DNA from: an uncultured bacterium
GTDB lineage: Bacteria; Fidelibacterota; Marinisomatia; Marinisomatales; UBA2128
Assembly (NCBI GenBank): GCA_964534955.1
Contig: CAZHRR010000004.1
Coordinates: 1 to 42,159 of the forward strand
Direction of reading: 5' to 3'
DNA: 42,159 nt
Shown here: positions 18,042 to 19,927 of the stretch, one piece after another
How the letters are laid out: each line of letters opens with the position of its first letter
Numbering within the stretch: the first letter of the stretch is position 1
Notes under the pieces: generated by a model
Seen by the model: the letters and a program-made list of their open reading frames with translations, nothing else
Database searches by the model: none
What the model was told of the DNA's origin: nothing
Made by a program: the position numbers and the translations under genes

Positions 18042-18227
18042 TTACCAGCTCGCCTTTGTCACACCTGGAATCTCACCTTTCAAAGCCATCTCACGGAAGC
18101 AGAGACGGCAGAGGCCGAATCTCCTCAGATATCCTCTGGGACGACCGCAATTGGAGCAACGATTATACTTTCTGGTGCTGAACTTGGGTTTACGCTTTGA
18201 TTTTGCAATGAGTGATTTCTTTGCCAT
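18042..18227 (-). CDS. rpsZ: 30S ribosomal protein S14 type Z (zinc-binding, 61 aa)
   Basis: [23 protein letters not shown] has the CxxC...CxxC pattern. Confidence 0.93.
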
Positions 18228-19240
18228 CAGGCTACCTCAGCTGCTTCAGTTAATTCATTAGAAACGGAATCACCTTCTTCCGCCACATTACTATTCTCTT
18301 TTTTAGCACGCTCGAAACGGTTATCAAGCCGGAAAGGTAATCCTAGTAATTTCAATAACTCATAACCTTCTTGATCCGTCTGGGCAGTTGTTACAATAGT
18401 GACATTCATTCCTCTTATCTTGTCAATTTTATCGTAGTCAATTTCGGGAAAAACAACGTGCTCTTCTATCCCCATGCTATAGTTTCCGTGACCATCAAAC
18501 GACTTAGCAGAAAGTCCCCGGAAGTCTCTTACCCTCGGAAGAGCAATAGAAACAAGTCTCTCAAGAAATTCGTACATCTTCCATCTGCGCAGAGTCACCC
18601 GACAACCGACAGGATCACCTATCCTCAATTTGAAATTGGAAATTGCTTTCCTAGCTTTCGTTACTACAGCTTTCTGTCCGGTGATTGTCGCCAAATCCTC
18701 AGATGCTTTTTCAAGAGAACCTGACTCATTCCTTGCATCACCCATACCAACATTCAGGGTTATTTTATTCAATCTGGGAACCTCTAAAGAATTGGTGTAA
18801 CCGAGTTCCTTCATCAAAGCAGGTGTAGCTTTCTCCCGATGATAAGCCAATAAAGAAGGTCTATATTCGGCTTTCTTCTTAGGAGAAGTCTTTTTTGCCA
18901 ATTCTGCCTTTTTAGGTGCAGACTTCTTCTGAGGAGTTGTTTTCGTCGAACTTCTTTTCTTGGCTGCAGGTTTTTTCGTCGTGCTCTTTTTGCCAGTAGA
19001 TTTTTTTACAGTACTTTCTGCTGTAGAAATTTTCTTGGCTGCAGACTTTTTTGTTGTACTTTTTGCCGAAGCTTGCTTCTTGGCAGTACTCTTTTTTACA
19101 GCAGATTTTTTCACTGTACTTTTCGCAGCAGCAATTTTCTTTGAACTGCTCTTCTTAGCCACAGATTTCTTGGCTGGGGCTTTCTCTTCTGCTTTAGAAG
19201 CTGATTTCTGTACTTTCTCTTTTTTCTCTTCCTTACCCAC
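18227..19240 (-). CDS. rplE: 50S ribosomal protein L5 with a ~125 aa Lys/Ala/Ser/Thr-rich N-terminal extension and a ~34 aa acidic C-terminal tail
   Basis: The core [40 protein letters not shown]... is a canonical L5. The ORF stays open for 125 codons upstream and starts 8 nt after the rplX stop. Confidence 0.85.
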
Positions 19241-19248
19241 GTTTACTC

Positions 19249-19557
19249 CTAAGAATCAATATCTTCCCCTGTCTTACGCGACACTCGTACCTTTCGACCT
19301 GTATCGAGGAACCTGTATCCCACACGGGTGGGTTTCCCGCCTGTAACAACTGCAAGATTGGATACATGTATTGAGGCTTCCTTTTCGATAATCCCACCTT
19401 GGGGATTCTGTTGTGAAGGACGACTGTGTCGCTTAACAAAATTCACTCTCTCTACAATAGCTCTGTTCCGTTTCGGCATAACGTAAAGGACTTTGCCAGT
19501 CTTACCTCTATAAGCTCCTGAAATAACCATCACTGTATCACCCTTTTTGATGTGCAT
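19249..19557 (-). CDS. rplX: 50S ribosomal protein L24
   Basis: [23 protein letters not shown]... Confidence 0.95.
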
Positions 19558-19558
19558 C

Positions 19559-19927
19559 CTATATAACCTCCGGTGCCATGGAAACTATTTTCATAAAGCC
19601 GCCTTCACGAAGTTCTCTGGATACAGGTCCAAATATGCGAGTTCCTTTTGGCTCAAGGGAGTTGTCTAGTAGAACAGCAGCGTTATCATCAAAACGAACA
19701 TAAGAACCGTCCTTTCTGCGAATCTCTTTCCGAGTTCTTACCACTACCGCTTTGGAAATCTCACCTTTTTTCACCATTCCGCCCGGCATAGCCTGTTTAA
19801 CCGTTACTACCACAACATCACCCACACGGGCATATCGCTTTCTTGTGCCACCGAGGATTTTGAAAGCGAGAACTTCTTTCGCGCCTGTATTGTCTGCTAC
19901 TTTGAGTCTTGTTTCCTGTTGGATCAT
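19559..19927 (-). CDS. rplN: 50S ribosomal protein L14
   Basis: [19 protein letters not shown]... Confidence 0.96.

Follow-up and report, generated by a model that had tools for sequence, protein, structure and literature searches.

A lysine-rich N-terminal extension, very probably translated, on ribosomal protein uL5 of a Marinimicrobia bacterium

INTRODUCTION

Low-complexity regions are a known feature of bacterial ribosomal proteins. Among the regions that have been surveyed, 9% have >30% Lys and most are C-terminal; S2, S16, L25, S3, S6, L3, L10, L17, L19, L21, and L31 were named as frequent carriers, and L5 is not listed (Ntountoumi et al. 2019, PMC6821194). Parcubacteria are marked by an Ala/Lys-rich tail on uS19 (PMC9297842). 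In uL5 of Cutibacterium acnes, a C-terminal extension of ~31 aa has been traced between 23S helices H84 and H38 (PDB 8crx; PMC10085706). In eukaryotes, Lys-rich disordered domains are abundant in snoRNP proteins, and their electrostatics are reported to be important (PMC11528048).

The gene described here lies in a stretch of 42,159 nucleotides (the window), to which all coordinates refer unless a contig is named. It encodes a uL5 with a long Lys-rich N-terminal extension and an acidic C-terminal tail. Among the uncultured bacteria of the dark ocean, Marinimicrobia (SAR406) are one of the most abundant groups, and in this organism a core ribosomal protein of the group is nearly doubled in size by its tail. 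No description of an extended uL5 in this phylum was found in the literature.

RESULTS AND DISCUSSION

Identity and context of rplE

The gene is located between rplX and rpsN on the minus strand, within the spc-operon order L14-L24-L5-S14-S8-L6-L18 (Table 1). An initial annotation, made from the letters and open reading frames of the window, had described a 337-aa L5 with a core beginning near residue 126 and a long N-terminal extension, and the coverage of the frame by Pfam and NCBIfam profiles confirms this description. Ribosomal_L5 (PF00281) matches aa 150-206 with 79.2 bits against a cut-off of 34.9, Ribosomal_L5_C (PF00673) matches aa 210-303 with 138.5 bits against a cut-off of 27.8, and the L5 equivalog NF000585 matches aa 131-304, corresponding to profile positions 6-179 of 181, with 266.5 bits against a cut-off of 186. 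Beyond the profile-covered core lie ~125 residues on the N-terminal side (19240..18866) and 33 after LGLPFR (18328..18230).

The product matches solved bacterial uL5 chains with E values of about 1e-66; according to the PDB sequence matches, these chains are 158-210 aa each, and a long N-terminal tail is absent from all of them. From these matches, the protein is inferred to sit in the 50S central protuberance beside 5S rRNA. A search of the genome returned one L5 match, rplE thus being single copy, and, judged by its profile scores and operon position, the open reading frame encodes the true uL5 of this member of the Marinimicrobia (Fidelibacterota). The S14 encoded downstream is the short form, with two Cys pairs (zinc type).

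Table 1. Positions of rplE, its parts, and adjacent elements in the window
Feature	Coordinates	Strand	Extent	Description
rplX (L24)	19249..19557	(-)		Upstream gene; stop 8 nt before rplE start
Shine-Dalgarno AGGAG	19246..19250	(-)		5-nt spacer to GTG; overlaps rplX stop TAG (19251-19249)
rplE (uL5)	18227..19240	(-)	337 aa	GTG start, TGA stop; from ORF list and profile matches
N-terminal cap	19181..19240	(-)	aa 1-20	Mixed charge, net +2; begins M/V-G-K-E-E-K-K
Array of degenerate KKxxx pentapeptides	18866..19180	(-)	aa 21-125	~20 units; net +34; predicted coil
Canonical uL5 core	18329..18865	(-)	aa 126-304	From conserved Y-x-P-x-L junction to LGLPFR
C-terminal tail	18230..18328	(-)	aa 305-337	Net -5; conserved LDNRFER motif, then variable acidic stretch
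rpsN (S14)	18042..18227	(-)	61 aa	ATG shares one base with rplE TGA (TGATG)

When the entire assembly was scanned in six frames, a Lys-rich low-complexity region was detected, at the thresholds used, in only one ribosomal protein, L5, and the idea that Lys-rich tails are a genome-wide habit of the ribosomal proteins was rejected on that result. The other proteins of the operon have canonical lengths. Compensation by the tail for the loss of a neighbor in the central protuberance was also considered and rejected, as bL25 (78.8 bits), bL31 (109.8 bits), and a canonical 5S rRNA (model positions 1-120, 102.9 bits) are all present and normal.

Only five other open reading frames of the genome contain Lys-rich low-complexity sequence: C53:7927-8481 (+), C34:4467-5174 (+), C19:4091-4963 (+), C145:382-2031 (-), and C13:13390-14973 (-). 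By eye, they comprise a GrpE-like protein with a basic N terminus of 50 aa, a MotA/ExbB-like membrane protein with a basic C-terminal tail, two TPR-like proteins with Lys-rich segments of 110 aa, and one long membrane-anchored protein. In two related genomes, second, weak matches to the tail (E of about 1e-4) fall within open frames of ~400 aa (G033:C29:5112-5417 and G019:C117:4959-5267) and represent other Lys-rich proteins of this order.

Composition and predicted structure of the N-terminal extension

Residues 1-125 comprise 43 K, 1 R, 8 E, and 0 D, equivalent to 34% Lys and a net charge of +36. Hydrophobic residues account for 7% of the whole extension, which is also rich in Ser and Thr and nearly doubles the size of L5. 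A repeat unit of 7-8 aa had been proposed for this region but was not borne out: the autocorrelation of Lys (0.67, 0.53, 0.47, and 0.40 at lags of 5, 10, 15, and 20) and the spacing of KK doublets, at 5 or 10 residues, both indicate a period of 5 aa.

No DNA tandem repeat was found by TRF in 18866-19240, and the Lys codons of the tail are mixed (AAA 58%, AAG 42%). Together, these observations indicate that it is the protein sequence in which the periodicity is maintained, and recent DNA slippage was rejected as the origin of the repeat on the same evidence. Poly(A) sliding was rejected because the longest run of A is 7 nt.

The AlphaFold2 model, built on an alignment of 26 sequences, contains a confident uL5 body, with aa 1-125 modeled as coil at pLDDT values of 41-53; the N-terminal tail is accordingly predicted by the model to be intrinsically disordered. 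An antisense open reading frame of 128 aa, Phe/Leu-rich and located at 18960-19346 (+), crosses the Lys-rich region. Its frame is open in eight of 19 relatives, and it is the shadow of a low-complexity coding sequence.

Translation of the extension

The L5 loci of 19 relatives in which rplX was found were compared; these relatives come from the genus itself and from 15 further families of its order. One locus of the same genus (L003, G001:C30) was left out of the counts; it has an N just upstream of rplE, and its 437-aa open frame and 426-aa first-start product are therefore artefacts. In all 19 loci, the first in-frame L5 start lies 2-13 nt past the rplX stop. The same coupling is seen in the window, where the long open reading frame begins 8 nt past the rplX stop, as had been stated (rplX ends at 19249), although its start codon, at 19240, is GTG and not ATG. 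The arrangement of AGGAG with a 5-nt spacer is kept in the genus and several other families, and in more distant families the ATG of rplE follows the rplX stop by 2 nt.

The rplX stop and the L5 core are separated by 81 to 398 nt in the 19 loci, with extensions of 26-130 aa. Over this interval, the L5 frame contains no stop in any locus, while the other two sense frames contain 43 and 123 stops and are stop-free in only four and one of the 19 loci, respectively. Composition alone does not, therefore, keep the L5 frame open. Extensions of very different length share the N-terminal cap (MAEEKDKK, MVKEE, MGKEEKK), so that a conserved cap and the conserved Y-x-P-x-L junction bracket a variable middle in the relatives. 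The window and a 93%-identical relative (public run) do not differ by any indel, and every Lys is retained across the 10 tail substitutions; dN/dS is 0.70 for the tail and 0.29 for the core, calculated from very few changes (14 in the tail).

The extension is thus very probably translated from the rplX-coupled GTG at 19240, given the open frame in 19 of 19 loci and the conserved Shine-Dalgarno sequence. This agrees with the initial annotation, which had considered translation probable and had pointed to stops or frameshifts in the repeat region of close relatives as evidence that would speak against it; the locus comparison and the 93%-identical relative contain neither.

It is very improbable that the extension is untranslated or only partly translated, with a TTG at codon 114 or 131 serving as an internal start and the sequence upstream acting as a long leader. 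Initiation at these codons would leave 17 or 0 extra residues, respectively, a weak AAGG precedes the first of them, and public annotation often calls shorter products. There is indeed no in-frame ATG near the start of the core, as originally noted, the first being codon 143, within the core helix. The in-frame non-ATG codons in or near the extension are GTG at 27 and 43 and TTG at 114 and 131. An internal non-ATG start with a Shine-Dalgarno sequence near 18870 had been suggested as an alternative, but the positions of these internal GTG and TTG codons are not conserved in the locus comparison and no strong Shine-Dalgarno sequence precedes any of them, AAGG upstream of codon 114 being the only candidate. 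In contrast, a strong and conserved Shine-Dalgarno sequence precedes the upstream start, and in every locus compared the L5 frame runs without a stop from the end of rplX. There was no Rfam match at an E value of ≤1 over 18100-19700, which also counts against a long leader; the idea that the stretch is a structured RNA leader and not coding was rejected on this result. Fusion of a separate H1-like gene to rplE was rejected because rplX and rplE are direct neighbors in all 19 loci.

Public gene calls for the same protein disagree. Full-length calls of 283-313 aa occur beside NCBI calls of 172-255 aa in the same 90%-identity clusters. The short calls begin either mid-tail or at a Met located 15-17 residues past the junction, in the conserved first core helix; several NCBI/JGI/ENA entries of 172-196 aa start inside this helix and are consequently shorter than canonical L5. 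Since the short calls truncate a conserved core helix or start mid-tail, they are not credible alternatives, and on these alignments the shorter public starts are unlikely to be right. The L5 tail is often cut off or wrongly shortened in public annotation, and the correct start matters for protein catalogues, marker-gene alignments, and future ribosome structures of the phylum.

Distribution of N-terminal extensions

Relatives were surveyed as the best 120 database matches, restricted to candidates of 185-590 aa. Extensions of at least 40 aa were present in 80 of these best 120 relatives, of at least 80 aa in 51, and of at least 120 aa in nine. In the 80 extensions of at least 40 aa, the Lys fraction is 0.30 +/- 0.04 and the net charge is positive in all, with a mean of +0.20 per residue. 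The repeat period depends on the clade, being 5 aa in the genus of the window and 9 or 15 aa elsewhere.

Across 201 sampled genomes of the phylum, stop-to-stop L5 frames are only ~187-211 aa long in several large families, and frames of 260-340 aa are reached in the order of the window and in families f21 and f22. Within the order, extensions vary from 0 to about 130 aa, with sequence that is barely alignable between families, and the ~1-Mb genomes of one family of this order (f12) have little or no extension. The presence of little or no extension in many clades and in ~1-Mb genomes indicates that the tail is dispensable for uL5 function. As judged from these comparisons, the tail behaves as a trait of the lineage: it lengthens, shortens, and changes quickly, with its composition (~30% Lys and a charge of ~+0.2 per residue) kept.

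As a control, 80 L5 loci of other phyla were examined; their median extra length was 4.5 aa, and only two loci had an extension of at least 40 aa, Lys/Ala-rich in both cases. A tail of this kind on L5 had been considered unusual, which holds for bacteria generally (two of 80 unrelated loci with at least 40 aa) but not within the phylum (80 of the best 120 relatives). The two control loci belong to a Thermodesulfobacteriota metagenome-assembled genome (L030) and an uncultured bacterium (L079), with N-terminal extensions of 54 and 66 aa, respectively. At least one of them, L030, lies outside Marinimicrobia, so Lys-rich tails seem to have arisen at the uL5 N terminus repeatedly, in lineages that are not related to each other. 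This recurrence may point to a location in the central protuberance that is permissive or useful.

C-terminal tail

After LGLPFR, a further acidic tail of 34 aa had been reported; its acidic character is confirmed (net -5), and its length is corrected to 33 aa. AlphaFold2 predicts a helix at aa 308-321. By analogy with the C. acnes uL5 extension, the tail would lie between 23S helices H84 and H38. The LDNRFER motif is also present in relatives without the N-terminal tail, and among the best 120 database relatives C-terminal tails were found without N-terminal tails and vice versa. The hypothesis that the basic N-terminal and acidic C-terminal tails are a coevolving pair was rejected, as their lengths are not correlated in these 120 relatives (Spearman -0.13, p = 0.16). 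Separately, in two gammaproteobacterial metagenome-assembled genomes (L071 and L102), the L5 frame runs 77 and 58 residues beyond the usual C terminus, representing either an extension or a read-through artefact.

Possible function of the N-terminal tail

The reading considered likely is that this uL5 carries a translated, disordered, polycationic N-terminal tail and an acidic C-terminal tail, and that the former functions in electrostatic binding of RNA at the central protuberance. The N-terminal tail would stay attached to the ribosome at this site, where it may serve as an in-built polycation whose charge allows non-specific binding to rRNA or to other RNA in the vicinity. Once bound, it could stabilize or shield the RNA or aid assembly of the 5S RNP and the central protuberance.

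The variability described above also bears on a different explanation, that the tail, although translated, is not under selection for any function and results from neutral low-complexity drift, in which repeats are gained and lost at a solvent-exposed terminus that tolerates them. The range of lengths within one order, from 0 to about 130 aa in families that can hardly be aligned, the clade-specific periods of 5, 9, and 15 aa, the tail dN/dS of 0.70 (with few changes), and the lack of extensions in many clades are all in keeping with such drift. It is nevertheless rather unlikely, because composition is tightly held in the 80 extensions of at least 40 aa (Lys 0.30 +/- 0.04, always net positive), none of the 10 recent tail substitutions loses a Lys, and mixed codons without a DNA tandem repeat are not the product of recent slippage. 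Furthermore, 43 extra Lys residues are costly on one of the most abundant proteins of the cell; in this phylum, streamlined members are reported to economize on side-chain nitrogen (PMC6798728).

The tail had also been described as a histone-H1-like repeat. Its composition is H1/Hc2-like, but membership of the corresponding families is not supported, as all profile scores fall below the cut-offs: 39.9 against 40 for PF07382 (HC2), 31.6 against 80 for NF038053, and 20 against 135 for NF038052. On these scores, the likeness to H1 and Hc2 is compositional and not one of homology. An H1-like second role, in which the tail would bind DNA or polyanions and tether ribosomes to the nucleoid or mRNA, or drive clustering or hibernation, is consistent with the similarity of its composition and period to those of Hc2 and the H1-like proteins of Burkholderia, and a +36 tail may be long enough to extend past the ribosome surface. 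Such a role is highly unlikely, however, considering the subthreshold family scores, the lack of a free-standing copy, and the existence of tail-less relatives in the same phylum.

A broader proposal is that the uL5 tail is a functional polycationic arm that binds nucleic acid or polyanions beyond the rRNA of its own ribosome, with a length tuned to habitat and with loss in nitrogen-economizing, streamlined surface clades. This proposal is improbable. If true, it would give deep-ocean Marinimicrobia a polycationic arm for nucleoid or mRNA tethering, clustering, hibernation, or replacement of Mg2+ or polyamines. Electrostatic binding of RNA at the central protuberance remains the favored function of the tail.

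Comparison with known systems

Chlamydial Hc2 (PF07382) and the Burkholderia H1-like proteins (NF038053) resemble the tail in their Lys/Ala-rich repeats of short period, strongly basic character, and predicted disorder. They are, however, free-standing nucleoid proteins, whereas the Lys-rich region described here is fused to uL5. Mycobacterial HupB, in which a Lys/Ala-rich tail is fused to HU, is also a nucleoid protein. The Lys-rich domains of snoRNP proteins provide an analogy only, being eukaryotic and nucleolar and located on assembly factors instead of a ribosomal protein (PMC11528048).

The C. acnes uL5 is similar in having a lineage-specific C-terminal extension, and the PDB sequence match reaches 11 residues beyond the core. 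It differs in belonging to another phylum and in having no long N-terminal tail, and the C-terminal tail of the Marinimicrobia protein is acidic, with its own LDNRFER motif. The low-complexity regions surveyed in bacterial ribosomal proteins (PMC6821194) share with the N-terminal extension a terminal position, a Lys/Ala-rich composition, and restriction to particular lineages, and are likewise presumed to be surface-located on the ribosome and to contact nucleic acid. The L5 region is distinguished from them by being N-terminal, by also being Ser/Thr-rich, and by nearly doubling the protein. With 34% Lys over 125 aa, and a Lys fraction of 0.30 +/- 0.04 in 80 relatives, it has the composition (at least 30% Lys) and the conservation within a lineage that mark a Lys-rich terminal low-complexity region. 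Bacterial ribosomal proteins with Lys-rich tails of low complexity have been described before, and the uL5 tail of this Marinimicrobia bacterium is a striking example of them rather than a new system.
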